From an uncultured bacterium (GTDB lineage: Bacteria > CSSED10-310 > CAZUFC01), in NCBI GenBank assembly GCA_964619725.1, contig CAZUFC010000016.1, positions 1 through 64,000 on the forward strand: a stretch of 64,000 nucleotides of DNA. The letters are read 5' to 3'. The notes under the pieces were generated by a model. That model searched no databases, had not been told where the DNA came from, and saw nothing but the letters and a program-made list of their open reading frames with translations. Every line of letters starts with the position of its first letter. Position 1 is the stretch's first letter. Shown here one piece after another: positions 26,070 to 54,836 of the stretch. Made by a program: the position numbers and the translations under genes.

Positions 26070-26097
26070 GAAACTTTATTTTGTCGATTACCGATAA
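26070..26097 (+). promoter_or_regulatory. Sigma28 (FliA/SigD)-like promoter
   Basis: GAAACTTT-N12-ACCGATAA versus the consensus TAAAGTTT-N11-GCCGATAA, about 80 nt upstream of ATG 26176. Confidence 0.5.
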
Positions 26098-26175
26098 CAA
26101 GGCTGAATGAGGGAAGCAAACAAGAGAATGACCCTCTTAAGTTAACGTTATAAATTTTTTCAAGGAGGAAAGAAA

Positions 26176-27609
26176 ATGTTACCAGGTTTGGATCCAGGAA
26201 GAATGTTAAACAACATGATAGACAGGGCTTTACCGGGAAAGCTGGGAGATTTCGTCGGCGACATGGCTGGAACTTATACGGATTTTATGACGGGCAATAC
26301 GATCGGCGCTTTCCAGAATTTTATGGACGGTTTTCAGAATTTCGGAGACCTTATGCAATCGGGCATGGGTTTCCAGGATTTCGCCAGCAATTTCGGCAGC
26401 CAGATACCCGAACCGGGATATTCCCCTTCCTTCGATCAGTCATTGCAGCCTCAGGGACAGTTAGCCGTTGAAGGAAATAAAATTCACACACCCGGCGGAT
26501 ACAGCGTGGAAAACATGGGCGGCACGAAATGGAAGATCACGTCGCCCACGGGAAAAGAAACGCTCATCCACGGCGATCCTCATGTATCGGAAAAGGACGG
26601 CGGCAGATGGGACTGGGACAACAAGACGATGTCCTTCAATTTACCTGATGGGACGAAAATCACGGCCAATGCCACCGGACCTCGGGGCGTTACGACTGAT
26701 TTCGACGTATACTACGGCAACCAGCACGTCCAGGCGACGGGAGTCAATACGGGGAATCCGCAGGTCAGCGGCGTAAGATATGATGCAGCGATCCATGATG
26801 CGATGCATACTGACGGATCGTCCGTGCATCTGGGCGGTGACGGCGATGACTGGTTCAAGATGGTTGACGGGTTCATGCGAGAAGTCGCAGGCGGCGGCGG
26901 AAAACCCGGCGCATTGAAATTCGGCGGCGGTTTCTGGGCTGATAAAATTACGCAACTTTCCAGTTCGCTCGCCGGCATGCCTTCCATGGGCGACTTCCCC
27001 GGCAATGTAATGCAACAGTTCCCCGAAGCTTTCCAGCAGATGAATTTCCTCAATCCCGCCATGGGATTATTACCCAACATTGCCCAGTTTCCGAACTTCC
27101 CCAGCGGTCCGGTTATGCCGGAACAACCGCCCACAGGCGGTGCAGGCGGCGCAGGCGGCGCAGGCGGCGCAGGCGGAGCCGGCGGAACAGGCGACATGGA
27201 CTGGTGGGGAGCGATGAGAGACGTCGAAAACGACAAAACACGGGGTGCATTAATGTCGATGATCAAAGGCGGAAGCTTTGAAGAAAAAATGATGGCCCTC
27301 CTGCTGGCCGCAGCCAACAAAGAGATGAAAAAAGCCGAAGGTTTAGCCAAGAATCTGGATGAAAGCAAAGGCGGCGGCGGTGGCGGCGGCGGCATCGGCG
27401 GCATGATGAAAAATATTCCTCTCGTCGGCGGTCTCTTCGGCGGCGGCGGAGGCGGAGGCGGAGGCGGCGAAGGCTCCGACACCAACGTCAACAACTTCAA
27501 GCTTCAGATGAGCATGCAGAGAATATCCCGGTTATTCCAATCAGTTACGAACATCATGAAAACGATGGGCGACGCCAGAATGGGCATTGCCAGAAACTAT
27601 AAAGCTTAG
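26176..27609 (+). CDS. Putative type III-secreted Gly-rich protein (DUF1521-like core, needle/tip-filament-like C-terminal helix)
   Basis: Strong AAGGAGG RBS; no Cys and no signal peptide; 'IHGDPHV...LPDGTKIT' core; C-terminus KLQMSMQRISRLFQSVTNIMKTMGDARMGIARNYKA; adjacent to a SycD-like chaperone and SctV. Confidence 0.7.
   Translation: MLPGLDPGRMLNNMIDRALPGKLGDFVGDMAGTYTDFMTGNTIGAFQNFMDGFQNFGDLMQSGMGFQDFASNFGSQIPEPGYSPSFDQSLQPQGQLAVEGNKIHTPGGYSVENMGGTKWKITSPTGKETLIHGDPHVSEKDGGRWDWDNKTMSFNLPDGTKITANATGPRGVTTDFDVYYGNQHVQATGVNTGNPQVSGVRYDAAIHDAMHTDGSSVHLGGDGDDWFKMVDGFMREVAGGGGKPGALKFGGGFWADKITQLSSSLAGMPSMGDFPGNVMQQFPEAFQQMNFLNPAMGLLPNIAQFPNFPSGPVMPEQPPTGGAGGAGGAGGAGGAGGTGDMDWWGAMRDVENDKTRGALMSMIKGGSFEEKMMALLLAAANKEMKKAEGLAKNLDESKGGGGGGGGIGGMMKNIPLVGGLFGGGGGGGGGGEGSDTNVNNFKLQMSMQRISRLFQSVTNIMKTMGDARMGIARNYKA
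27136..27186 (+). repeat. 9-bp coding tandem repeat encoding (Gly-Gly-Ala)n
   Basis: GGCGGTGCA GGCGGCGCA GGCGGCGCA GGCGGCGCA GGCGGAGCC GGCGGA inside the 477-aa ORF. Confidence 0.85.
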
Positions 27610-27623
27610 TCAGCAATAAAGCA

Positions 27624-27662
27624 AAACAAAAAAGGCGGTTCGATAAACCGCCTTTTTTGTTT
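27624..27662 (+). terminator. Intrinsic (bidirectional-type) terminator
   Basis: AAACAAAAAAGGCGGTT-CGATA-AACCGCCTTTTTTGTTT, a perfect stem with a U-tract, 14 nt after the stop codon. Confidence 0.9.
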
Positions 27663-27835
27663 GTTTTTCGCTATGAACCTCTCGTCTTACATAAATAGAA
27701 TTCTGCAAATGCCGACTCTTTATCGTCCTTTCCGGTTTCTGCCCATTTGCTCAAGGAAAGACGAAACCCGAAAACGGCATTTTTTTAGGAAATTTACAAA
27801 TTTACGAAATCCGCAAGATAGGCTGCAGCCCTTGC

Positions 27836-27864
27836 TTGACACGAATGCGTTTTTTTGTTTCAAT
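27836..27864 (+). promoter_or_regulatory. Sigma70-type promoter for the chaperone gene
   Basis: TTGACA-N17-TTCAAT, 50 nt upstream of ATG 27915, which has an AAGGAG RBS. Confidence 0.5.
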
Positions 27865-27914
27865 GGACTTAGATACGATAGTCCGTGACTTTTCTTCTAT
27901 CAAGGAGTTAAAAA

Positions 27915-28472
27915 ATGGCTGAAGAAAAAAAAGTAGATGAAACTGCAGGAAAAACAGAACCTGCCGAACAGATCGAGAATCCCATCACGATGGAAGCACT
28001 CGGCGAATTTCTGCGAGGTGAAATCACCCTCCAGGAATTACATCAGATTCACCCTAACGAAATGCTGGCTTTGGCCAAGATGGGCGAAGTGCTGCTTGAA
28101 TCCGGAAAGCTTGACCAGGCTCGCAGCATTTTTGAAGGATTGGTTTCGCTTAATCCTTATATCGGACAGTTTCATACCGTACTCGGCGGAATATACATGA
28201 AAAAGGGCGAACTGGAAAATGCGGTAGCCGAATATTCTGTCGCTGTAGATCGCAATCCCGCCGATATCGCAGCTTATGCCAACAGAGGCGAAATTTATCT
28301 CCGCCAGGGAAAACTCGATCTGGCCACCAAGGACCTCACGAAGGCAATCGAATTAGATAAAGAAACCGACCCGGCCAAGAAGAATCCGGCTTCAATGCGA
28401 GCGATTGTTTTAGCAATGGCTTTAAACGAAACTTTGAACGAAATACAGAAAAAGCAGGGGGAAAGCAAATAG
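27915..28472 (+). CDS. TPR type III secretion chaperone, SycD/LcrH (class II)-like
   Basis: 'GEITLQELHQIHPNEMLALAKMGEVLLESGKLDQARSIFEGLVSLNPY' fits the LcrH/SycD N-terminal pattern; three TPRs; directly upstream of sctV. Confidence 0.75.
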   Translation: MAEEKKVDETAGKTEPAEQIENPITMEALGEFLRGEITLQELHQIHPNEMLALAKMGEVLLESGKLDQARSIFEGLVSLNPYIGQFHTVLGGIYMKKGELENAVAEYSVAVDRNPADIAAYANRGEIYLRQGKLDLATKDLTKAIELDKETDPAKKNPASMRAIVLAMALNETLNEIQKKQGESK

Positions 28473-28696: not shown

Positions 28697-30817
28697 ATGT
28701 CTAAAATGACGAATGTGAAGAGGTCTCTGGCGGACGGCGGATTAACGGAAGCTCTGACGAAATACAGCGATATAATGCTGGCGGGACTGGTAATCGGCAT
28801 AGTGGGAATGATGCTGATCCCTTTGCCGACTTTTTTATTGGACATATTGCTGACGATGAACATTACCCTGGCAGTGACCATATTGCTGGTAACCCTATAC
28901 GTACCCGGCGCCATAAAATTCGCATCCTTTCCCACTGTGTTGCTCATTGCAACTCTGTTCAGGCTTGCACTGAACGTGTCTTCGACAAGGCTGATTCTGC
29001 TGTATGCTTATGCGGGAGAAGTCATTAAATCATTCGGAAATTTTGTGGTTAAAGGCAATTTCGTTGTAGGGGCCGTAATTTTTCTGATTCTGACGTTAAT
29101 TCAATTCATCGTGATATCGAAGGGTTCGGAGCGGGTAGCGGAGGTTGCGGCGCGTTTTACGCTTGATGCCTTACCCGGTAAGCAGATGAGCATTGACGCC
29201 GATATGCGTGCAGGATCGATCAGCATGGAGGAAGGAAAACGGAGGCGCGAGGAACTGGAGCGTGAATCGCAGCTTTACGGGTCCATGGACGGGGCTATGA
29301 AGTTTGTGAAGGGGGATGCCATCGCAGGCATCATCATCACCGCCATAAACATTATCGGCGGGTTGATCATCGGCATAATGCAGCAGGGGATGTCCGCTGG
29401 AGAGGCCGCCCAGACATATACCTTGTTGACTATCGGCGATGGATTGGTTTCCCAGATACCGGCGCTTCTCTTGTCGACCGCCGCCGGTATGGTCGTTACT
29501 CGCGTCGCTTCGGAGCACGAGGATTCGCATCTCGGCAAGGATATAGGAACTCAGTTGCTGGATCAGCCGAAAGCGATCGGAATAGCTTCCGGTATGTTGT
29601 TTCTTTTGGGCATTGTGCCGGGATTGCCGATGGTGCCGTTCTTTATCCTCGGCGCTGTCACGGGAACCATCGCCTACGGTCTTTTGAAGACCAGGGAAAT
29701 ATCTGAAGAAGCAGCGGAAGAGATTGAAGCAGAGGAAGAAGAAAAAAAGAAGGAGGAAGCAGCGAAAGAGGGACTGGTTTCTTTGGTTACTCCGCTTGCG
29801 CTGGAAGTGGGCGAAGAATTGACCAAATTTGTGGATTTGAAGTACGATGGAGGCAAATTCATCAATGAGATGCTGCCGATGATCCGGGAAGGCATCTATC
29901 AGCAACTCGGAACAAGATTACCTGGCGTGAGAGTGCGCGGATACAGCCGGGCGCTCGGTCCGGACATGTATATGATCCTTGTGAACGAAATTCCTGTGGT
30001 CACAGGCAGAATTCTTATGAACAAAATACTGGTGAACGAAGCCGCTCAGAGTCTAAAAATTTTCAATATAGATGCCATTCCCACTACGAATCCGGCGACC
30101 GGCTCGCCTGCAGCCTGGGCGCCCGAAGAAAAAAGGGAAATTATTGAAAAAGCCGGTTATAAAATATGGGATGTGCCCGGAGTCCTGACGCTGCACCTCT
30201 CAGGAGTCATGCTGAAGCATGCTCACGAATTTATAGGCATCCAGGAAGTACAGTCAATGCTGGATCAAATGGAACAGGCTTTTCCCGCTCTCGTGAAAGC
30301 CGCTTCAAAGGCGGTTAATACCCTCAAACTGTCCGAAGCTTTGCAACGACTCGTCCATGAACAGATCAGCATCCGTGATTTTCGCAGAATTCTGCAATCC
30401 GTGGCCAAGTGGGGTCCCATTGAGCCCGACGATGTTATGATGCTTACAGAATACATCAGGACCGATCTCAAGGAAATCATCAGTTACAAATATTCAGGCG
30501 GCAAAAATACGCTCATCGTTCACCTTCTGGATTCTGATATAGAAGACTTGATCCGCAGCTCAATTAAAAAAACAAAAGCCGGCAACTATCCGAACCTCAA
30601 TCCCGATGTCGCCGAAGAAATACTGGCGGTTATGGGACGCGAATTAAAACATTCGCTAAACTCACCAACTCCGCCGGTAATTCTCTGCAGTTTCGACGTA
30701 AGGCCTTATTTCAAAAGCATCGTGAAAGACACTTATCCCCGCGTAGCGGTTCTTTCATTTCATGAAATCGCCGGCGATATGAATATACAGCCGGTCGGTC
30801 AAATTAGCATCGGTTGA
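28697..30817 (+). CDS. sctV: Type III secretion export gate SctV (LcrD/YscV/HrcV family, non-flagellar type)
   Basis: FHIPEP motif with injectisome-type residues KGSERVAEVAARF, QMSIDADMRAG and ESQLYGSMDGAMKFVKGD; no FlhA-type GH-containing insertion after STRLILL. Confidence 0.88.
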   Translation: MSKMTNVKRSLADGGLTEALTKYSDIMLAGLVIGIVGMMLIPLPTFLLDILLTMNITLAVTILLVTLYVPGAIKFASFPTVLLIATLFRLALNVSSTRLILLYAYAGEVIKSFGNFVVKGNFVVGAVIFLILTLIQFIVISKGSERVAEVAARFTLDALPGKQMSIDADMRAGSISMEEGKRRREELERESQLYGSMDGAMKFVKGDAIAGIIITAINIIGGLIIGIMQQGMSAGEAAQTYTLLTIGDGLVSQIPALLLSTAAGMVVTRVASEHEDSHLGKDIGTQLLDQPKAIGIASGMLFLLGIVPGLPMVPFFILGAVTGTIAYGLLKTREISEEAAEEIEAEEEEKKKEEAAKEGLVSLVTPLALEVGEELTKFVDLKYDGGKFINEMLPMIREGIYQQLGTRLPGVRVRGYSRALGPDMYMILVNEIPVVTGRILMNKILVNEAAQSLKIFNIDAIPTTNPATGSPAAWAPEEKREIIEKAGYKIWDVPGVLTLHLSGVMLKHAHEFIGIQEVQSMLDQMEQAFPALVKAASKAVNTLKLSEALQRLVHEQISIRDFRRILQSVAKWGPIEPDDVMMLTEYIRTDLKEIISYKYSGGKNTLIVHLLDSDIEDLIRSSIKKTKAGNYPNLNPDVAEEILAVMGRELKHSLNSPTPPVILCSFDVRPYFKSIVKDTYPRVAVLSFHEIAGDMNIQPVGQISIG

Positions 30818-44776: not shown

Positions 44777-45769
44777 ATGCATCAAGAAGAAATACGAAAA
44801 CTTCACGAACTAATAAACGAAAAATCGGAATTCGTAGAGACTATTTTCGATCAGATACGTCAAGTCATCGTCGGTCAGAAATATTTAATCGAACGACTTC
44901 TAATTGGTCTTCTGGGAGACGGCCATATACTGATAGAAGGAGTTCCGGGACTGGCGAAAACGCTATCGGTAAAAACTCTATCGGATTCCATATCCGGCAA
45001 ATTCCAAAGAATTCAGTTTACTCCGGACATGTTGCCCGCCGACCTGATAGGCACCATGATTTATAATCAACGCGAAGGAACTTTCGTTGCGAAAAAGGGT
45101 CCATTGTTCACCAATCTTGTTCTGGCTGATGAGATCAACAGGGCTCCGGCGAAAGTCCAAAGTGCGCTGCTGGAAGCGATGCAGGAGCGTCAGGTGACCA
45201 TAGGAGAAACGACCTATCCTTTGGAAAAGCCGTTTTTGGTGTTGGCGACGCAGAATCCCATCGAACAGGAGGGAACGTATCCTCTGCCTGAAGCGCAGGT
45301 GGACCGTTTCATGTTGAAGCTGAACGTAACTTATCCGAGCAAGGAAGAAGAGAGAGCCATTCTGGACAGAATGACGGGTATGGAAGAGCCGAAGGTGGAC
45401 AGCGTGATAACGCCGCAGCAGATTGTGGAATCCCGGAAAATAGTGAACCAGGTTTATGTGGATGAACGGATAAAAAATTATGTCGTGGATTTGGTTTTCG
45501 CTACCAGGTATCCCAAAGATTACGGTCTTGAGGAACTGCAGGACCTTATCCGGTACGGAGCCTCACCCCGTGCGACGATTTATCTGACGACGGCCGCCAG
45601 GGCCCATGCTTTCATCCGCCGGCGAGGCTATGTTACGCCGGAGGATGTGAAAGCAATCAGCCTGGATGTTTTACGGCATCGGATCATTTTAACGTATGAG
45701 GCTGAAGCGGAAGAGAGAAGCGCCGAGGATGTCGTCGGCCAGATACTGGATACGGTGGAGGTCCCGTAG
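44777..45769 (+). CDS. moxR: MoxR-family AAA+ ATPase
   Basis: EGVPGLAKT, RIQFTPD, DEINRAPAKVQSALLEAM, ATQNPIEQEGTYPLPEAQ.DRF motifs. Confidence 0.95.
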   Translation: MHQEEIRKLHELINEKSEFVETIFDQIRQVIVGQKYLIERLLIGLLGDGHILIEGVPGLAKTLSVKTLSDSISGKFQRIQFTPDMLPADLIGTMIYNQREGTFVAKKGPLFTNLVLADEINRAPAKVQSALLEAMQERQVTIGETTYPLEKPFLVLATQNPIEQEGTYPLPEAQVDRFMLKLNVTYPSKEEERAILDRMTGMEEPKVDSVITPQQIVESRKIVNQVYVDERIKNYVVDLVFATRYPKDYGLEELQDLIRYGASPRATIYLTTAARAHAFIRRRGYVTPEDVKAISLDVLRHRIILTYEAEAEERSAEDVVGQILDTVEVP

Positions 45770-45858
45770 GGCATAATTCATGCCGGAATATATCCGAGAT
45801 ACATGGGATTGAGCGGCTATTCAGAGTATGAAGTTTCATTATTTGGAAATATCGGATC

Positions 45859-46743
45859 ATGATACCCAAGGAATTGCTGAAAAAAATCAGGCGCATTGAG
45901 ATTTATACCAACCGTATGGTCAATGAGGTCATTGCAGGTCAATATCAGAGCGTGTTCAAGGGCCGCGGAATGGAGTTCGACGAAGTCAGAGAATACAGAC
46001 CAGGCGACGACATAAGAACGATCGACTGGAATGTTACGGCCCGCATGGGAAGCCCTTACGTCAAAAAATACGTTGAAGAGCGTGAACTTACCGTCATGCT
46101 GCTTGTGGACGTCAGCTCATCAGGCTCCTTCGGCTCGTTCAATCAAATGAAAGGCGAACTCGCCGCAGAAATCTGCGCTTTACTCGCCTTCTCCGCGATT
46201 AAAAATAATGATCGCGTCGGCCTGCTCGCCTTTACCGACCAGGTTGAAAAATATATTCCCCCCAAAAGCGGATCAGAACATGTGCTTCAGATCGTCAGAG
46301 AAATACTCTATTTCAAACCTAAAAGGACGGAAACCGACATCGCCGGCGCGCTTGATTACCTGAACAGAATTCAAACGAAAAAAGCAGTTGTTTTTCTTGT
46401 ATCAGACTTTCTTTCCGGAGAATATGAAAAACCGTTGAGAATCGCCAATAAAAAACACGACGTCATAGCGATATCCGTTTCAGACCCCAGAGAAATAAGC
46501 TTGCCGCCCATAGGCATTCTGGAACTTGAAGATGCCGAAACTGGCGACATCCTGGTCGTTGATACGTATGACTCCCAGTTACTGGATCAGTTCTCTGCCA
46601 CATCAGAGGAAAACAGAAACAGCCGCACGGAAATGTTCAAAAAAATGGGTATCGATCACATAGAAATCTTTACCGATAAACCCTACCTTAAACCGCTGGT
46701 TCTCTTTTTCAGGGAACGGGCCAGGAGATTAAGGGCGCTGTAA
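45859..46743 (+). CDS. DUF58 domain protein
   Basis: 'KGRGMEFDEVREYRPGDDIRTIDWNVTAR', DVSSS, 'SDF'; follows moxR. Confidence 0.92.
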   Translation: MIPKELLKKIRRIEIYTNRMVNEVIAGQYQSVFKGRGMEFDEVREYRPGDDIRTIDWNVTARMGSPYVKKYVEERELTVMLLVDVSSSGSFGSFNQMKGELAAEICALLAFSAIKNNDRVGLLAFTDQVEKYIPPKSGSEHVLQIVREILYFKPKRTETDIAGALDYLNRIQTKKAVVFLVSDFLSGEYEKPLRIANKKHDVIAISVSDPREISLPPIGILELEDAETGDILVVDTYDSQLLDQFSATSEENRNSRTEMFKKMGIDHIEIFTDKPYLKPLVLFFRERARRLRAL

Positions 46744-46807
46744 GCTGGAGGATTATGGTCGATTATGCATTGTCTTTCGTTCAATTTATTATTCTGGAGA
46801 ATCTAAA

Positions 46808-47773
46808 GTGAAAAGTCTGGTCATAGTCAATACCGTCATTTTATTACTGCTGCTCGGAACTGTCGGATATATGCTGACGGATCAGTCTGAAGAACAATAT
46901 CGGGAGGACCCCGAATGGATAAAGGAGTATGCTGCCCTGCTGACTTCAAAAGAATTGTATGAGCAGGCGATTGAGGCTTATAAAAGGTACGCCGAATTTT
47001 CAGGCATAGGACTGGACCGTCGCATCAACGCCAATTACATGATCGGAAAAATCTACCAGGAAAACCTCAAGGATTATGAAAACGCTCTGGCTTATTTTTA
47101 CAAAGTCAAACAATTTCGCCCTTCCGGCGACCTCATGAATGAAACCAACCGCAACATCGTGGAATGTCTTGAAAGAATGCAGAGAAGCTCAGACGCTCAA
47201 CGGGAACTGGACCGCATAACCAGGCATGGAGCGGAAGCCGAGGCGAAAGAAGAGGAGGGAGTGGTACTGGCGCGCATTGGAGATGAATCGATAACGCTTG
47301 AGGAAATAAGAGAAAAAATAACTGAATTGCCTGAAGATTCGGCTGAGTCATTTACGACCTGGGACGGATTCAGAAATTTTCTGAGGAATTACGTGGCCGA
47401 GGAAGTAATATACAAAGCGGCTTTACGACAAAATTTACAAAAATCGCCGGAAATCAGGGAGAAAATTGAGGAAGTGGAGAAAGCCTTATTGGTGCAAAAG
47501 GTTATCGAAACGGAACTGGCCGACAACGTTGAATTGCCTGAATCGGACCTGAGACTCTATTATAAGGCTCATAAAGATCGTTACAAGAAACCCGCTGCAG
47601 GCGATTCAGAAGAAGAAGAGATAATGAGTTTTGAAGAAGCGCGTCAGAAGATCGCTGCCGACCTGGCCCGGGAAAGGGGAATGGAGGTTTGGCAAAACTT
47701 GATCAACAGGCTTTCTGCAGCAGAGGACGTAGAATTTTATGAAGAAAGAATACCGGAACATCCTATGGAATAG
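46808..47773 (+). CDS. Membrane-anchored TPR protein with a PrsA/SurA-like chaperone scaffold lacking a parvulin domain
   Basis: N-terminal TM and TPR-like helices, then 'VLARIGDESITLEE...YYKAHKDRY...SFEEARQKI', similar to the non-catalytic part of 42208-43560. Confidence 0.65.
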   Translation: MKSLVIVNTVILLLLLGTVGYMLTDQSEEQYREDPEWIKEYAALLTSKELYEQAIEAYKRYAEFSGIGLDRRINANYMIGKIYQENLKDYENALAYFYKVKQFRPSGDLMNETNRNIVECLERMQRSSDAQRELDRITRHGAEAEAKEEEGVVLARIGDESITLEEIREKITELPEDSAESFTTWDGFRNFLRNYVAEEVIYKAALRQNLQKSPEIREKIEEVEKALLVQKVIETELADNVELPESDLRLYYKAHKDRYKKPAAGDSEEEEIMSFEEARQKIAADLARERGMEVWQNLINRLSAAEDVEFYEERIPEHPME

Positions 47774-48773
47774 AATCCTGATTGTGCTGATTCTGAGTCT
47801 CGCTGCAGCGCCATTGAGCCAAGCACAGGATGAGGACGCGGAAAAACCGGAACTAACGGTGAAATCGTCTGTGGACAAATCCGTCATCACTATGGGTGAA
47901 CCGCTGATTTATTCCCTGTCCATTGAGGCTTCGGAAGACGTTTCAGTTAAATTGCCTGATCCGGGAATAAACCTGGGTAAATTTGAAATTCGAGACTACA
48001 CGGCAGTACCTCCTTCCAAAATTGAAGGATATGTGAAGTATGAAACCAGGTATGAAATCACTTTGTACTATGTCGGAGAGTATGAAATTCCTCCGGTTCA
48101 GGTAAATTATGTGGATGCTGAAGGCGAGGAAAAAAGCATTCGCTCAGAACCTCTCAAAATAAAAGTGACCGGCATAGCGCCGGAAGATGCTCAGGATATT
48201 AGAGACATTAAGAATCCTGTGTTGATGGAGCGGGACCTGTCGAAAGTCTATTATCTCATCGGTGCGATATCAGGGATAATTTTAGCTGCAGTTGCAGCAT
48301 TGCTTTATGTGCGTTATCGCCGCCGGAGCCGGCTCGAACCGGTAGTGACGGAGCCTCCCGTTCCTCCGGATGAAGAGGCATTGCAAGCCCTCCAGAAGTT
48401 AAAGGAAAGTGACCTGCTGGAAAATTCTCAATACAAGGAATGGTTCGTAAGATTCTCGGAAATCATGAAAAAATTCATGGGGCGACAGTTCGGTTTTCCT
48501 TATCTGGAAAGGACGACGGAGGAAATCCTGGATGACGTGCACAAGGCTTCGGTTCCGGACGTATGCGTACAGATATTTACGAAACTGCTGGAGAGGAGCG
48601 ACCTGGTCAAGTTCGCCAAATTTCATCCTCACGATGAAGAGATAAACGAAACGCTTGAAATGGCTGAAACACTTATATCTGAATCGAAAAAAGGAATGTT
48701 GCTGCATTATGTGAAAACTGAAGGCGGTTCGACCGAAACCGTCAAGAGGACGGAGGTGAGTTCGGGACAATGA
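47739..48773 (+). CDS. BatD-like domain membrane protein of the Bat operon
   Basis: Signal peptide; 'SVDKSVITMGEPL', 'IRDIK.P', TM helix, 'ERTTEE', 'DLVKFAK'. Confidence 0.7.
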   Translation: MKKEYRNILWNRILIVLILSLAAAPLSQAQDEDAEKPELTVKSSVDKSVITMGEPLIYSLSIEASEDVSVKLPDPGINLGKFEIRDYTAVPPSKIEGYVKYETRYEITLYYVGEYEIPPVQVNYVDAEGEEKSIRSEPLKIKVTGIAPEDAQDIRDIKNPVLMERDLSKVYYLIGAISGIILAAVAALLYVRYRRRSRLEPVVTEPPVPPDEEALQALQKLKESDLLENSQYKEWFVRFSEIMKKFMGRQFGFPYLERTTEEILDDVHKASVPDVCVQIFTKLLERSDLVKFAKFHPHDEEINETLEMAETLISESKKGMLLHYVKTEGGSTETVKRTEVSSGQ

Positions 48774-49762
48774 GGTTTGCGAATCCGGAATTCTTTTTGC
48801 TGCTGGCGTTTCCCGTCGTCGTTTATCTTATCGGAGCGACCCGGTTCCGTTTTCGTTTCGCTTCATTACGCTTTTCCGATTTCAGGCTTCTAAAAGGAGT
48901 CAGGTCCTCCAGGGGTTTGAAGAAGCTCCGTATTCTAAAAATACTCCGCGCAGCGGCGCTGTTGTTCTTCATTACAGCGCTCGCCAGACCTCAATCCGGA
49001 ACCACTCATCAGGAAATACTCAGTGAAGGAATCGACATCATGCTCGCCATTGATATTTCGGGAAGCATGAGAGCGGAGGATTTTCAACCTGACAATCGTC
49101 TTGAAGTCGTTAAACGTGTCGTATCCGACTTCATCAACGGTCGAATGCACGATCGCATCGGTATGGTCGTGTTTGCCGCAGACAGCTTTACTCAATGTCC
49201 GCTGACGCATGATTACGGAATATTAGAGGAATTTCTGCAGCATGTGGAAATCGGTATGGTCAATGAAGATCAGACGGCCATCGGAATGGCTCTCGCCAAC
49301 TGTATCAACAGGCTTCGCGATTCGGAAGCCGACAGCAAAATAATTATTCTTTTGACCGACGGCGTCAACAATGCCGGCAAAATTGACCCGCTGCACGCCG
49401 CACGCCTGGCTGAAACCATGGATGTTAAAATATACTCCATCGGCGTCGGCTCCAGAGGCACCGCAATGGTCCCCGTCTCCGATCCCATTTTCGGCAAAAG
49501 AATGGTTCCCATGCAGGTGGAAATTGATGAAAAAACCCTTAAGGAAATCTCTGACTTAACGGGAGGAGCCTATTTTCGAGCTACAGACCCCAAAAAACTG
49601 GAAGAAATTTACGACATAATCGATGAAATGGAAAAAACCGAAATTAAAACCCAGGAATACACCGAATACAGCGAACTGTTTTACTGGTTCATTCTGGCAG
49701 GTTTGCCTTTTCTCGTTCTCGAAATCTTTTTAAGTCAAACCCGACTCAGAAAACTTCCATAA
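48770..49762 (+). CDS. batA: BatA-like VWA domain protein
   Basis: 'FANP', 'LARPQ', MIDAS DISGS, 'DRIGMVVFA', 'TAIG', LLTDG motifs. Confidence 0.88.
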   Translation: MRFANPEFFLLLAFPVVVYLIGATRFRFRFASLRFSDFRLLKGVRSSRGLKKLRILKILRAAALLFFITALARPQSGTTHQEILSEGIDIMLAIDISGSMRAEDFQPDNRLEVVKRVVSDFINGRMHDRIGMVVFAADSFTQCPLTHDYGILEEFLQHVEIGMVNEDQTAIGMALANCINRLRDSEADSKIIILLTDGVNNAGKIDPLHAARLAETMDVKIYSIGVGSRGTAMVPVSDPIFGKRMVPMQVEIDEKTLKEISDLTGGAYFRATDPKKLEEIYDIIDEMEKTEIKTQEYTEYSELFYWFILAGLPFLVLEIFLSQTRLRKLP

Positions 49763-49772
49763 GGATGCTGTC

Positions 49773-50822
49773 ATGATAACCTACGGACAATCCGGCCCTC
49801 TTTTAACTCTCTCGTTATTTCTGATCTTCGGACTAACGCCGCTTATCATTCTTTTGCTTTTATACGGCAATCACGCCAAAAAGAAAGCGCTGCAGAAATT
49901 CGCAGAAAACCGTCTGCTGCAGCGACTCACATCAGCGGTTTCCCGCCGCAAACAGATGCTCAAGATGACCCTGATCGTCGTCGGCCTTTTCCTTGCCGTC
50001 TATTCTTTCGCAAGACCGCAATGGGGTTCGCGTAAAGAAATGGTAAGGATGAAGGGTCTCGACATTTTCATAGCCGTCGATACGTCTCTCAGCATGAACG
50101 CGACAGACGTGAAACCCAGCCGGTTGCAGAAGGCGAAAGGAGAAATAGAAGCGCTGCTGGACAAGATGCGCGGAGACAGAGTCGGGCTGATAGCCTTCGC
50201 CGGTACAGCCTTCGTTCAATGTCCTCTTACGGTCGACTACGGAGCGCTTCGAATATTCCTTAACATATTGGATACCGATCTCATTCAATATCCGGGCACC
50301 GCGCTTGAAAAAGCCATACGCACCGCTGCCGACAGCTTTGAAACAGGCGACAGAAAGCATAAAGTCCTTATCCTGATGACCGACGGCGAAGGACATTTGG
50401 GCGACCCGGTTAAAGCGGCAGAAGAAGCCGCTGCAGAAGGAATTCGCATATTTACTATCGGATTCGGGTCTCCCCAGGGCGAGCCCATACCCATCAGAAA
50501 CGAAAGAAATGAAGTCGTCGAATACAAAAAAGACAAAAATAACCAGGTCGTCGTCAGTAAACTGGACGAAACGACCCTGGAAAAAATCGCGCTGCTCGCC
50601 GACGGAACATATTATCGAGCCACTACCGAAGAAAGCGAACTGGATAAAATCTATGAAGAACTCCAGCAAATGGAAAAACGGGAAATGGGATCAAAACTTT
50701 TTACCAGACGCGAAGACCGCTATCAGATATTTCTCCTGCTGGGAGTTCTTGTTCTTTCCGTCGAAGCTGTTTTAACCGACCGCAAAACAAAGGGTGAAGA
50801 ATGGAAAGGAAGATTCGTATAA
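49773..50822 (+). CDS. batB: BatB-like VWA domain protein
   Basis: 'ARPQWG', DTSLS, 'DVKPSRL', 'CPLTVDY', MTDGE, 'SKLDE' motifs. Confidence 0.88.
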   Translation: MITYGQSGPLLTLSLFLIFGLTPLIILLLLYGNHAKKKALQKFAENRLLQRLTSAVSRRKQMLKMTLIVVGLFLAVYSFARPQWGSRKEMVRMKGLDIFIAVDTSLSMNATDVKPSRLQKAKGEIEALLDKMRGDRVGLIAFAGTAFVQCPLTVDYGALRIFLNILDTDLIQYPGTALEKAIRTAADSFETGDRKHKVLILMTDGEGHLGDPVKAAEEAAAEGIRIFTIGFGSPQGEPIPIRNERNEVVEYKKDKNNQVVVSKLDETTLEKIALLADGTYYRATTEESELDKIYEELQQMEKREMGSKLFTRREDRYQIFLLLGVLVLSVEAVLTDRKTKGEEWKGRFV

Positions 50823-51589
50823 AAATCCTTCATATAGCTTTCGCCTGCTCTGCGCTGCTCTTTTCCGGATGCGAAAATCTGGAGGATCAACTCTGGAAAA
50901 CCACCAGCGAAGGCAACCAGCTCTACAAGGAAGCTGAATATGATGAAGCCTTGAAAAAATATACAAACGCACAACTCGAAGCCCCGGAATCGAAAATCCT
51001 TCACTTTAATATCGGCGACGTCTATTACAGATTACAGAAGCATGATCAGGCCATTGAAAGCTGGCAGAAAGCCGTAGCAGCCGATTCGCACCAGCAACGC
51101 GCTGATGCCTGGTACAACATCGGAAACGCACATTATCAAAAAAAGGCATGGATAGAAGCTATTGATTCTTATAAAAGAGCCCTGGATATCGTGCCGGACC
51201 ATGAAGATGCAAAATTTAACCTGGAACTGGTCCGTCGCCGGCTTAAATCTGGTCCTTCCGAAGAAGCCCTGAGATATAAAAAAGAGATTGAAAAGCTCGT
51301 CAAAGAGAAAAAATACGGAGAAGCCTGGAATGTGACGGCTGAAGCGCTTCAAAAAGATGAAACTTTCCAAAAATTAGGCGATATGATAATGAGGGTTTAC
51401 GAGCTGGCGGGCATTTTTGATCCGGAATCAGTTCAGAATCAGCAGTTGAAGATTCAGCCGCCTGGAGGCGCCCCCGGAGGACAAACCGGCCCCGGCCCTG
51501 GTCCCCGAATCAATCCCATGCCCCCGCCGAAACAGACGCCTATACCTATGAAAACGCCTCTTCCCCGCCCTAAGGGAGTTAAAATATGA
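50801..51589 (+). CDS. BatC-like TPR lipoprotein with a Pro-rich tail
   Basis: Lipobox FSGC; TPRs 'HFNIGDVYY', 'WYNIGNAHY', 'DAKFNLEL'. Confidence 0.78.
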   Translation: MERKIRIKILHIAFACSALLFSGCENLEDQLWKTTSEGNQLYKEAEYDEALKKYTNAQLEAPESKILHFNIGDVYYRLQKHDQAIESWQKAVAADSHQQRADAWYNIGNAHYQKKAWIEAIDSYKRALDIVPDHEDAKFNLELVRRRLKSGPSEEALRYKKEIEKLVKEKKYGEAWNVTAEALQKDETFQKLGDMIMRVYELAGIFDPESVQNQQLKIQPPGGAPGGQTGPGPGPRINPMPPPKQTPIPMKTPLPRPKGVKI

Positions 51590-52164
51590 AAAAAATAACG
51601 ATTAATGCCGGAATCCTCATATTCTGTTTGTGCTTTTATTTACCGGGAATTTTCAGTCAAAACTCTGATGGACAACTGACCGACCCGGACGATGCTTTTC
51701 AAGACAATATGCATGGGGCCGCCTTCACATTTTTCAAAGGCAATTACGGAAAAGCTATGGACATGATCGAAAAAGCGCTCGAACTGAAACCGGATGATGA
51801 GCAATGCCGGCAATTGAAAGAAAAAATAGAAGAACGCCTTAAGCAACAGCAACAGCAGCAGCAACAGCAGCAGCAGCAACAGAATCAGGACAGCGAACAG
51901 GAAAAGAATGGACAGGAAAACCAGGAAAATCAGGAACAGCAGGAACAGCAGGAACAGCAACAACAGGCTCAGGCAGGCGAACAGTCAGACGAGGAAAAGC
52001 AGGGTGAGGAGGAGCAGGAGGCAAAGGCGATGACGGCCGAAGAAATTTCAAAGGAGGAAGCTGAAAGGATTTTGAATGCATTGGAAGATGATGAGGAGGA
52101 AATACAGAAGGATGTGCGGCGCAGATTAACGGGAGGCGCCAGAAGCGTTGAGAAGGACTGGTAG
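51586..52164 (+). CDS. TPR and Gln-rich protein carrying the BatC-type C-terminus
   Basis: Signal peptide, one TPR, 13xQ tract, ends 'ISKEEAERILNAL...EKDW'. Confidence 0.75.
   Translation: MKKITINAGILIFCLCFYLPGIFSQNSDGQLTDPDDAFQDNMHGAAFTFFKGNYGKAMDMIEKALELKPDDEQCRQLKEKIEERLKQQQQQQQQQQQQQNQDSEQEKNGQENQENQEQQEQQEQQQQAQAGEQSDEEKQGEEEQEAKAMTAEEISKEEAERILNALEDDEEEIQKDVRRRLTGGARSVEKDW
51844..51882 (+). repeat. CAG/CAA trinucleotide tract (13 Gln)
   Basis: caa cag caa cag cag cag caa cag cag cag cag caa cag. Confidence 0.9.
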
Positions 52165-52167
52165 ATT

Positions 52168-54048
52168 GTGAAAGTTGTCTCCATATTTTTGATAATTTTG
52201 TTTGTGTCCGGCGTATGCGCAGCGAGAAGTGCGGATTTTTCGGTAGAAGCTTACACGGACAAAACAAGGATGACCAGCGACGACAGTCTGCAACTGACCG
52301 TTTCTGCGGGAGCCCAACAGGGGACGCCACAAATTCAGATTCCCGAATTTGAGGATTTTGATGTTGTCCAAAGGCCGTCCCAGTCGACTGAGATGCAGAT
52401 CATCAATGGTCGTATGTCCGTAAAACAGAAGATCACTGTAATTCTGATGCCGAAGCGGGACGGAAAGCTGACCATACCTCGCATACCGGCGACACTGGAC
52501 GGACAGACAGCCTATTCTGAACCCATAGAAATTCATGTGGTCAAATCCGCGGTCAAACCTCAAGCTCCTCATCCGCAATCGCAGCAGGATTCGCGCCGTT
52601 CCGACGTCGAACCACCCGGTTCAACCGATGAAAAGGACCTTTTCATCCGGGCTGCAGCGGATAAAACTGAAGTTTATGTAGGCGAGCAGATATCGGTACA
52701 GTATGACCTATACAGCCGGATCAACATAGTCGACGTCAATATTCAGACCATGCCGTCGACTTCGGGCTTCTGGGAAGAGGACCTGTATTCGCCGCAGTCG
52801 CTTGATATGCGCCGGACGAAAATCAACGATGTTCCTTACGTCACGGCGCTGATCGCCCGTAAAGCCCTGTTTCCCGTTTCCTCGGGAGAATATACGATTG
52901 AACCCATGGTGCTCCGTTTCGCCGTCAGAACGGAAAGGCGCCGCTCTTCCCGATCCCGTGACCCTTTCGGTTTTATGAATGACGATTTTTTTAATCCTTT
53001 TTTCGACAGAACAAAATCCATATTCCGAAAAAGCAATCCGCTTTCCATCAAGGTTAAACCATTGCCCGAAGAAGGCAGGCCTTCATCTTTTTCCGGCAGC
53101 GTCGGCGATTTTTCCATTTCCGCGGATATCGATAAGACAAGACTGAAACAAGGCGATGCCCTGACGCTGACTATTAACGTCCAGGGAACCGGAAACGTTA
53201 AGACCTTCGGCCCTCCTGTTCTGCCTGAATTGCCGGATTTCAAGGTTTATGAACCCAAAGTATCCGAGTCCGGCAATATTCAAAACATGACGTACGTGGG
53301 CCTGAAATCATTTGAATACGTTCTGATAGCCAGGAATCCGGGAAATGTCGCAATTCCTTCGCTGGAATATTCGTTCTTCGATCCGCAAAAGGAACAATAC
53401 AGAACTGTCCATACGAAAAATTTCCGTGTTTTCGTCGAAGAATCGGAACAGGAGGAAGATTCCGTCATAGTCGTCGGCCCTGAAACTCAAAAGAAAAAAA
53501 TGGTCCTGAAAGGGAAGGACATTCGATATATAAAAAGCGCTCCTGATATGCTCTCCGATCAAACCCAAAATTTTCATAAAAGACCGCTCACACTGCTCTT
53601 GTGGATACTTCCATGGTTTGCTTTACCCGGAGCGTTAATTTTCAGTTCTTACCGGAAACGTCTCTCGGAAGATGTGGCTTTCGCTCGTAAACGAAAAGCG
53701 CTCGTCACAGTTCAAAATAAATTAAAGAAAGCGGAAAGCATGTCGGAGCATCCTGAAAACTCAGTGGAATTCTATAAAACAATCAATGACGCATTGACGA
53801 AATACATCGCTGACGTCTGTAACCTTCCCGCAGCAGGTTTGACTCCCGAAGAAATCCGGAACGTCTTGAATCAATCCTGCGTCACTTCAGAATCGATCAG
53901 GAAAGTCGATTCATTGCTCGAAACTTCAAATTTCCTTATTTTCACCGGTGCACGCTCCGAAAAAAAGGATATGCAGAATTCTCTCGAAGAAGTGAAACAA
54001 TTGATAAATGAACTGGAAAAAGAAAAGAATCTGAGGAGCCGGAAATGA
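52168..54048 (+). CDS. batD: BatD family protein
   Basis: Signal peptide; 'QIING', 'VYVGEQ', 'F.GSVGDF', 'GTGN', 'FFDP' modules; C-terminal TM helix. Confidence 0.88.
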   Translation: MKVVSIFLIILFVSGVCAARSADFSVEAYTDKTRMTSDDSLQLTVSAGAQQGTPQIQIPEFEDFDVVQRPSQSTEMQIINGRMSVKQKITVILMPKRDGKLTIPRIPATLDGQTAYSEPIEIHVVKSAVKPQAPHPQSQQDSRRSDVEPPGSTDEKDLFIRAAADKTEVYVGEQISVQYDLYSRINIVDVNIQTMPSTSGFWEEDLYSPQSLDMRRTKINDVPYVTALIARKALFPVSSGEYTIEPMVLRFAVRTERRRSSRSRDPFGFMNDDFFNPFFDRTKSIFRKSNPLSIKVKPLPEEGRPSSFSGSVGDFSISADIDKTRLKQGDALTLTINVQGTGNVKTFGPPVLPELPDFKVYEPKVSESGNIQNMTYVGLKSFEYVLIARNPGNVAIPSLEYSFFDPQKEQYRTVHTKNFRVFVEESEQEEDSVIVVGPETQKKKMVLKGKDIRYIKSAPDMLSDQTQNFHKRPLTLLLWILPWFALPGALIFSSYRKRLSEDVAFARKRKALVTVQNKLKKAESMSEHPENSVEFYKTINDALTKYIADVCNLPAAGLTPEEIRNVLNQSCVTSESIRKVDSLLETSNFLIFTGARSEKKDMQNSLEEVKQLINELEKEKNLRSRK

Positions 54049-54836
54049 AAGAGCGATTTCTGATAATCTTCTGCACTGTAACGGTTCTGCTCGGCGCCGG
54101 CCTTTTATCGACGCTTCCCGTCTTTTCGGATGAAACGGAGAGTTTCACATTATTGTTCAAAAAAGGAAATGAAGCCTACCAGAAAGGACAATACGAAACA
54201 GCGTTATCCAACTACGAAAGAATACTGACTCACGGATTCGCAAGCGGAAAAGTCTATTACAACATCGGCAACACCTATTTCTATCTTGGAAACATCGGAA
54301 AAGCCATCCTGTATTATGAACGAGCCAGACGCATCCTTCCGGGAGACGAAGACGTCAAAGCCAATCTGGAATTAGCATATTCCATGACGGAAGACAAAAT
54401 AGAAGCGCCGCAGCCTGGACTAATGAGCCGGGCATTCCGATTCTTCTATAACAAATTTAATCTTAATACTCTTGCCGCCGCTTCACTCATTATTTATCTC
54501 GTCATAAGCGCCCTTGTCATAACAGGAATATTAATTCGCATTACTCAAATACGCAAATGGTGCTTTCGATCAGCCATGATATGCGCAATACCGCTGATCG
54601 TTTTCGGATACAGTTTTCTTTGGAAACTGTATGACCTCCATTACAATCCCCAGGCCGTCGTCCTGGCCGATCAAGTCGAAGCGAAAAGCGGTCCCGCCGA
54701 AAACTTCACATCCCTTTTTACCATTCATGAAGGAACCAAAGTCAATATAATAGCCGGACGATCAGATTGGGTCCGTATCGACCTGCCCAACGGCCTGAAC
54801 GGCTGGATACCTGGGGACGCTCTTGAACGTATCTGA
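54045..54836 (+). CDS. batE: BatE-like TPR and SH3 protein
   Basis: 'GNEAYQKGQYE.A', 'YYNIGN', 'AILYYERA', two TM helices, 'F.IHEGTKV...W..I.LPNG..GWI'. Confidence 0.88.
   Translation: MKERFLIIFCTVTVLLGAGLLSTLPVFSDETESFTLLFKKGNEAYQKGQYETALSNYERILTHGFASGKVYYNIGNTYFYLGNIGKAILYYERARRILPGDEDVKANLELAYSMTEDKIEAPQPGLMSRAFRFFYNKFNLNTLAAASLIIYLVISALVITGILIRITQIRKWCFRSAMICAIPLIVFGYSFLWKLYDLHYNPQAVVLADQVEAKSGPAENFTSLFTIHEGTKVNIIAGRSDWVRIDLPNGLNGWIPGDALERI

Follow-up and report, generated by a model that had tools for sequence, protein, structure and literature searches.

The MIIA domain, listed in Pfam as DUF1521, is the Ca2+-induced GD'PH autocleavage domain of NopE, and its cleavage site has been defined (PMC6506597). 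MIIA domains have hitherto been without a structure and without a purpose, that of Vibrio being unfolded in low Ca2+ (PMC6506597), and NopE1, an effector that is secreted, must cleave itself in order to function (PMC8367979). In FrpC the Asp anhydride links to lysines (PMC7078468), whereas in FCGBP cleavage just stabilises the domain and a cross-link was not observed (PMC10880436, PMC8267560). Here we describe a stretch of 64,000 nucleotides (the window) from an uncultured bacterium of the CSSED10-310 lineage, in which a single open reading frame (ORF) of 477 codons joins a MIIA domain to a C-terminal hairpin that, by sequence and in structural models, is like that of the needle (SctF) subunits of type III secretion systems (T3SS). 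The ORF is real and the arrangement of its two known parts is new, in a T3SS that has been little studied; a literature search, mostly at title level and with subscription papers and supplements outside its scope, found neither a MIIA-needle fusion nor a link between MIIA and the von Willebrand D (vWD) fold. The gene and the parts of its product are as follows.

26176..27609, + strand: gene for the 477-aa MIIA-needle fusion protein (ORF, Pfam, relatives)
26176..26430, + strand: residues 1-85, amphipathic helices at 7-18, 22-38, 42-61 and 66-72 (model; hydrophobic moment)
26449..26940, + strand: residues 92-255, DUF1521/MIIA autocleavage domain, beta-rich, predicted vWD-like fold (Pfam; model)
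26572..26583, + strand: residues 133-136, GDPH motif, predicted cut between D134 and P135
26941..27201, + strand: residues 256-342, Pro/Gln/Met-rich segment and GGA linker (low confidence; of varying length or absent in relatives)
27271..27606, + strand: residues 366-477, needle-like hairpin (helix 368-398, Gly-rich loop 398-435, helix 436-476)

The DUF1521-like core proposed by a first-pass annotation, which a model had made from the letters alone, is borne out by Pfam PF07481, whose gathering score is exceeded over residues 122-167 (32.8 against 23.6 bits, E 8.5e-8). The motifs were located at residues 132 (HGDPHV), 145 (WDW), 156 (LPDGTKIT) and 443 (LQMSMQ), as were the GGA and poly-Gly linkers of a protein with 92 Gly. 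What that annotation missed is that the domain is the Ca2+-induced self-cleaving MIIA with its GDPH intact, which alters the role of what had been taken for a displayed domain, and also that the main needle candidate lies elsewhere in the genome, on contig C79. The site between D134 and P135 is intact and the sequence predicts it to be active: D134 is kept in 92 of 93 aligned rows, GDPH is present at 80/80 and 58/59 related loci, and the acidic residues E139, D141, D146, D158, D203, D225 and E236 are each kept in 83-94 of 93-94 rows. Cleavage would yield fragments of 14.4 and 35.4 kDa, which may remain together, as five predicted strands lie ahead of the cut site. In models the fold of the domain resembles vWD domains, these being the top beta matches, and the family profile aligns with the GDPH sites of FCGBP (E 2.2e-9 summed over five sites). 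Foldseek with the full model gave nothing at E 0.001, and a wider VIA fold search was swamped by generic hairpins and barely probed the core.

The C-terminus had been read in the first pass as a single polymerisation helix of needle type; the helix is upheld, but it is predicted to be one of two (368-398 and 436-476) forming a hairpin that ends at the C-terminus, superposes on MxiH and has a short amphipathic stretch within its loop. PF09392 is matched by 4/11 family members (best E 1.4e-6) and TIGR02105 likewise by 4/11 (best E 0.006), and residues 343-477 match needle clusters of the ESM Atlas with scores of 0.91 and 0.89 (PF09392 on 27% and 52% of members). A C-terminal profile of the relatives, run against the 40,114 ORFs of the genome, recovers only the 477-aa protein and the needle-like gene on C79 (E 2.4e-7), whilst a homolog search with the C-terminal region returned one protein out of 1,887 candidates. 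Both hairpin helices are retained in the close family, where P0004-P0006 have a tight needle-like turn. Two results weigh against a place in the filament: on its own the query falls below every needle hidden Markov model (HMM; PF09392, TIGR02105), and a needle tail is found in only 1/139 of the MIIA proteins of Myxococcota and Acidobacteriota, the C-terminal helix of which gave no match to the needle helix. Nor has the protein the small size of SctF or its place between sctE and sctG, which is taken by C79:29502-29987.

Upstream of the ORF is a GGAGG ribosome-binding site, and the ORF is single-copy in the genome; a contig of the probable source run covers 26128-28458 in register, apart from 118 skipped letters of repeat (same sample, not independent). 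The best DNA match is a microbial-mat metagenome from one study, no RNA dataset with the gene sequence was among the matches listed, and an Rfam search of the window gave 0 matches. The composition noted in the first pass was confirmed: there is no Cys, as in some 3% of the unfiltered genome ORFs of 400-560 aa (34/1,155), and of the first 90 residues 41 are Met, Gly, Phe or Asp. A Sec signal is absent, as judged by eye, and translocator-type hydrophobic segments are lacking too; given that the highest 19-residue Kyte-Doolittle mean is only 0.8, the protein has no transmembrane segment, where SctB and SctE translocators have one or two. The supposed likeness to harpins proved to be one of composition alone, with no family match, and has been abandoned. 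Residues 1-85, kept in 9/10 close relatives (partial ones counted as far as present), probably hold the secretion signal and would belong to the N-terminal fragment on cleavage; their hydrophobic moment is at most 0.47, and the predicted local distance difference test (pLDDT) is 58-75 over residues 1-60 and below 50 at residues 273-357. Ten relatives, with best local identities of 39-59%, retain the core and the C-terminal helix, and one close relative (P0010) is labelled as candidate division CSSED10-310. NCBIfam had no match for the query, and the whole protein met only unnamed clusters in the ESM Atlas (0.75-0.76).

The neighbourhood of the gene, in which TPR stands for tetratricopeptide repeat, is made up as follows.

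26070..26097, + strand: sigma28-like promoter motif GAAACTTT-N12-ACCGATAA, 79 nt before the start codon
27624..27662, both strands: bidirectional intrinsic-terminator-like hairpin of 17-18 pairs, 3' of the 477-aa gene
27915..28472, + strand: TPR chaperone, 185 aa, SycD/SctY-like (TIGR02552 64 bits, cut-off 104.8; SctY 31 bits, cut-off 70)
28697..30817, + strand: SctV export gate, non-flagellar (TIGR01399 795.5 bits, cut-off 692; FlhA model below its own cut-off)

The 477-aa gene is tied to a non-flagellar, Myxococcota-like T3SS. The second gene downstream is sctV, and a separate FlhA sits in the flagellar cluster on contig C7. Contig C79 (C79:14115-31660, L155) carries SctU, T, S, R, Q, P, O, N, J, I, L and K-like genes, of which SctN, R and S exceed their cut-offs and SctU, T and J fall below. 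The needle-like gene C79:29502-29987 lies there between a SctE-sized ORF and a CdsG-like TPR gene, in the order sctL-(sctE-sized ORF)-F-CdsG-like, and is a better major-needle candidate than the 477-aa protein. No secretin was found on contig C79 or C16, seven being present elsewhere in the genome, and an SseC-family gene was not found in the genome (91% complete).

Among 14 genomes of the phylum, a SctV/FlhA match is present in 10 (in 9 of these above the cut-off for SctV), a needle-like gene in 11 and MIIA in 3. The order sctU-X-TPR-sctV recurs in five of them (G003, G005, G006, G008, G009), where X encodes 199-240 aa without MIIA and with a weak needle-type C-terminal helix (E 3e-5 to 0.024). 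As a needle-tailed protein fills the same slot in these five relatives, the 477-aa protein is the likely client of the adjoining chaperone, a client that the first pass had called unclear. In G004 a TPR gene comes after the gene of a needle-tailed MIIA protein of 655 aa, whilst the MIIA protein of G002 is without the tail. Further afield a TPR gene lies directly 3' of MIIA at 70/78 evaluable loci in Myxococcota and 26/35 in Acidobacteriota (2 and 24 loci respectively dropped for short flanks; kin not independent), and core sct genes are present at 32/49 and 4/11 MIIA loci of at least 12 kb. Chaperone adjacency, the sctV slot and a shared promoter motif thus link the homologs to T3SS genes, as the first-pass annotation had supposed. 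In a quick tree the MIIA-adjacent chaperones are one clade (SH-aLRT, an approximate likelihood ratio test, 100; 29 rows), which the window's chaperone joins weakly (86), the needle G-type chaperones being separate (99). A second quick tree rejects the needle-tailed MIIA proteins as a single clade (approximately unbiased test, p 0.0011; 18/75 rows, three of the 18 added by inspection), so the pairing of MIIA and needle tail has been gained or lost more than once.

This gene order would also suit an SctX-like gate substrate, whose C-terminal helix, bound by the chaperone, would dock on the SctV ring to license secretion, the substrate then leaving the cell as a soluble carrier of MIIA without joining the filament, a reading that we regard as rather doubtful. 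The order X-TPR-sctV, here and in the five relatives, equals bscX-bscY-bcrD (PMC7498569), and the YscX:YscY complex is like a needle-chaperone complex, with the YscX C-terminus entering the YscV ring (PMC9163089). The chaperone has a weak SctY match (E 3.2e-7), the slot-mates retain the last helix without the hairpin, and a needle-like gene precedes the TPR gene at 10/17 Myxococcota and Acidobacteriota loci with TPR-sctV. Yet the slot and A1/A4 profiles match needle-type chains with no YscX chain among the matches listed (E up to 5-10), SctX/SctY are reported solely for the Ysc family (PMC9163089), and the chaperone, whilst below both cut-offs, scores higher as SycD than as SctY and groups weakly with the MIIA-adjacent rather than the sctV-adjacent chaperones. 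A PDB search with it gave generic TPR proteins alone among the top 60.

Two phylum relatives (G002 and G004; L182, L183, L193, L195, L198-L200) each have five scattered proteins, of ~74 to more than 550 aa, with a needle-type helix at the end, and several of these adjoin a TPR gene of their own, which suggests a modular tail with varied cargo. P0160 (306 aa) has the N- and C-terminal parts of the 477-aa protein, including the loop helix, and a Gly-rich hydrophobic middle in place of MIIA. Such observations fit a free effector or translocon helper like NopE, in which the tail would serve solely for chaperone binding and export and the Ca2+ cut would free the N-fragment onto a target membrane. 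The same tail ends several otherwise unrelated proteins in those two relatives, MIIA is exchanged in P0160, most MIIA relatives lack a needle tail and still have the chaperone, the chaperone is SycD-like, and NopE1 itself is secreted and requires autocleavage. We nonetheless think this unlikely: two retained hairpin helices and the tight turn of P0004-P0006 exceed the needs of a binding tag, the 477-aa protein has no hydrophobic segment, and EspA-like proteins with an inserted MIIA point to filament display.

Those EspA/Bsp22-like proteins (P0067, P0071, P0131) have the domain between their N- and C-terminal helices, and P0067, a distant MIIA protein, matches EspA at E 0.007; a three-sequence EspA-like alignment did not find an EspA chain in the PDB. 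That the 477-aa protein is itself the major subunit of an EspA/Bsp22-like sheath filament, with a dense MIIA coat cross-linking or stiffening it, seems very unlikely. The gene has its own promoter and terminator, as would befit a highly made subunit, a close relative is duplicated in tandem (L094:2459-4441, where a DUF72-like gene lies upstream, as in the window), and helix 368-398 is weakly like the N-terminal helix of the P0067 group (domain E 0.29). This last likeness is not significant, however, EspA Pfam models match 0/11 family members at E up to 1 and EspA is not listed in the fold searches, and a 360-residue N-terminal load on each subunit would be sterically costly.

The strict form of the promoter motif, GAAACTTT-N11/12-ACCGATA, has 3 sites in the genome against 0.049 expected per spacer, and these precede the 477-aa gene, the C79 needle-like gene and a C39-peptidase-like gene (C6:110402-111631). 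A looser pattern, fixed after about five outside examples had been viewed, lies upstream of 46/114 MIIA genes and 51/82 needle-like genes, against 6/712 other genes and 1/93 other T3SS-like genes; of the four slot-mates in which it was sought ahead of X (G003, G005, G006, G009), none had the motif. We infer from the sequence that the motif shared by the 477-aa and needle-like genes acts as a promoter. The genome also has a flagellar cluster, with flagellin under a sigma28 promoter, and the protein might be flagellar, or unrelated to T3SS and beside sctV by chance. This is most improbable, as the flagellin promoter has TAAAGTTT where the two genes have GAAACTTT, the slot and chaperone adjacency are conserved across three phyla, and the looser pattern is enriched at MIIA loci.

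The reading that we favour, and hold to be an evenly balanced proposition, is that the 477-aa protein serves the non-flagellar T3SS as a minor subunit, in the filament or at its tip, and cleaves itself after export, so that one component of a secretion filament may undergo self-cleavage on reaching the exterior. It would be transcribed with the C79 needle-like gene from the shared sigma28-type promoter, held by the TPR chaperone and, judging from gene order, delivered to SctV as a late substrate. In the low-Ca2+ cytoplasm its MIIA domain would be unfolded and hence exportable, as the Vibrio domain suggests (PMC6506597). The C-terminal hairpin would then dock into or onto the filament of the C79 needle-like protein, leaving the remainder outside on flexible linkers. 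The N-termini of needle subunits face outward. Extracellular Ca2+ would fold MIIA into a vWD-like beta-sandwich and bring about the cut, upon which the amphipathic N-fragment would end in a transient Asp anhydride. This fragment might be clipped to a lysine on a target or neighbouring subunit or be freed at the target membrane, or it could stay bound since it contributes five strands of the fold. The likeness to the myxobacterial system, together with the co-regulation of C39-like and peptidoglycan-binding proteins, leads us to guess that the target is bacterial.

Myxobacterial T3SS have been described as needleless (PMC3459982, PMC12075869, PMC10433427). Within loci so described there are genes for needle-like proteins of 70-76 aa, often in 2-6 near-identical copies.

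L080:6523-9187, L085, L087, L063, L078:8683-9390, L081:5945-6160 and G061:C126:2293-2514: small needle-like genes

These have the promoter motif in common with MIIA genes. A profile of 22 of the small proteins ranks true needles first in the PDB (13/16 hits, E 7e-4 to 0.06), whilst single proteins fall below the Pfam cut-off (best E 0.0007); an hhalign probability of 98.9 between the family C-terminus and the 22 was discounted, those proteins having been picked by the family's own profile. All 4 Myxococcota genomes checked have 5-8 matches each, several in tandem, and in Cystobacter and Archangium the small genes have MIIA as a neighbour and sctJ no more than about 15-20 kb away. By size, they are provisionally assigned to one of the two clusters. 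It is a speculative extension that predatory or otherwise cell-attacking environmental bacteria have a divergent needle filament with a calcium-armed clip-and-link tip, the myxobacterial T3SS having an overlooked needle of 70-76 aa and a MIIA partner. Equally tentative is the idea that MIIA, as a bacterial relative of mucin vWD, cleaves on export and that its anhydride staples the N-fragment to the target cell, which if true would tether the filament or seed a pore. The myxobacterial T3SS is needed for the lysis of prey, and Myxococcus xanthus lends itself to genetic work.

Several further features of the genome were observed. The C79 cluster has its own sigma28-family gene, a FHA-SctQ fusion and a 1,335-aa protein with a peptidoglycan-binding domain, and the seven secretins, with a Tad/CpaB-like locus on C52 labelled by eye, offer a possible partner for this secretin-less T3SS, as in Myxococcus. 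Two C39-peptidase-like proteins (C6:110402-111631, C79:1481-2584) have T3SS-substrate-like N-termini and Gly-rich amphipathic tails and are candidate substrates, and an orphan SycD-like chaperone gene (G000:C46:49622-50119) has no evident client close by. Positions 44777-54836 of the window hold a run of MoxR ATPase, DUF58, vWA and TPR genes that we take to resemble the bat operon.

Comparison with known systems sets the protein apart in several ways. NopE1 and NopE2 of Bradyrhizobium and VIC_001052 of Vibrio coralliilyticus likewise have DUF1521, GDPH and the conserved acidic residues and are T3SS-encoded, but in the sources available no needle-like part is described for them, whereas the 477-aa protein combines a single MIIA with an amphipathic N-terminus and a hairpin of needle type, and its domain is less acidic (19 D/E and 14 K/R in 164 aa, against 42 and 21 in 171 aa; PMC6506597). 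With the vWD domains of mucins and FCGBP and the FrpC module it has Asp-Pro autocleavage in common. The GDPH of FCGBP, followed by DG-x-aromatic-D, can be aligned with the family and the modelled likeness of fold to vWD is partial, but there is no disulfide joining the fragments and five strands lie ahead of the site where vWD has one. The fold matches listed included nothing like the FrpC module, and the anhydride cross-linking known for FrpC (PMC7078468) is not reported for MIIA in the literature consulted in part. The vWD-like fold and the repeated pairing with filament helices offer testable ideas on the structure and purpose of MIIA.

YscX/YscY (SctX/SctY) have the same gene order, sctX-sctY-sctV, with a TPR chaperone and a C-terminal amphipathic helix, but the 477-aa protein is four times longer than YscX and has an autocleavage domain, and no YscX chain was among the matches listed (E up to 10). 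SctF needles (MxiH, PrgI, YscF; PF09392, TIGR02105) have in common with it the C-terminal helix pattern and the predicted hairpin, but are of about 80 aa; in the longer protein, which is below the HMM cut-offs, a long Gly loop replaces the tight turn, a single SycD-like chaperone stands in place of the E/G pair, and the sctE-F-G position belongs to another gene. The SctA proteins EspA and Bsp22 are, similarly, second needle-like proteins with a chaperone of their own, plausibly distal to the needle (PMC7498569), but have the extra domain between their helices, where the 477-aa protein has both helices C-terminal and the domain N-terminal. The known role of needle and tip proteins is that of a passive conduit, and a self-cleaving, possibly cross-linking domain would, if true, be a new way to functionalise the injectisome.
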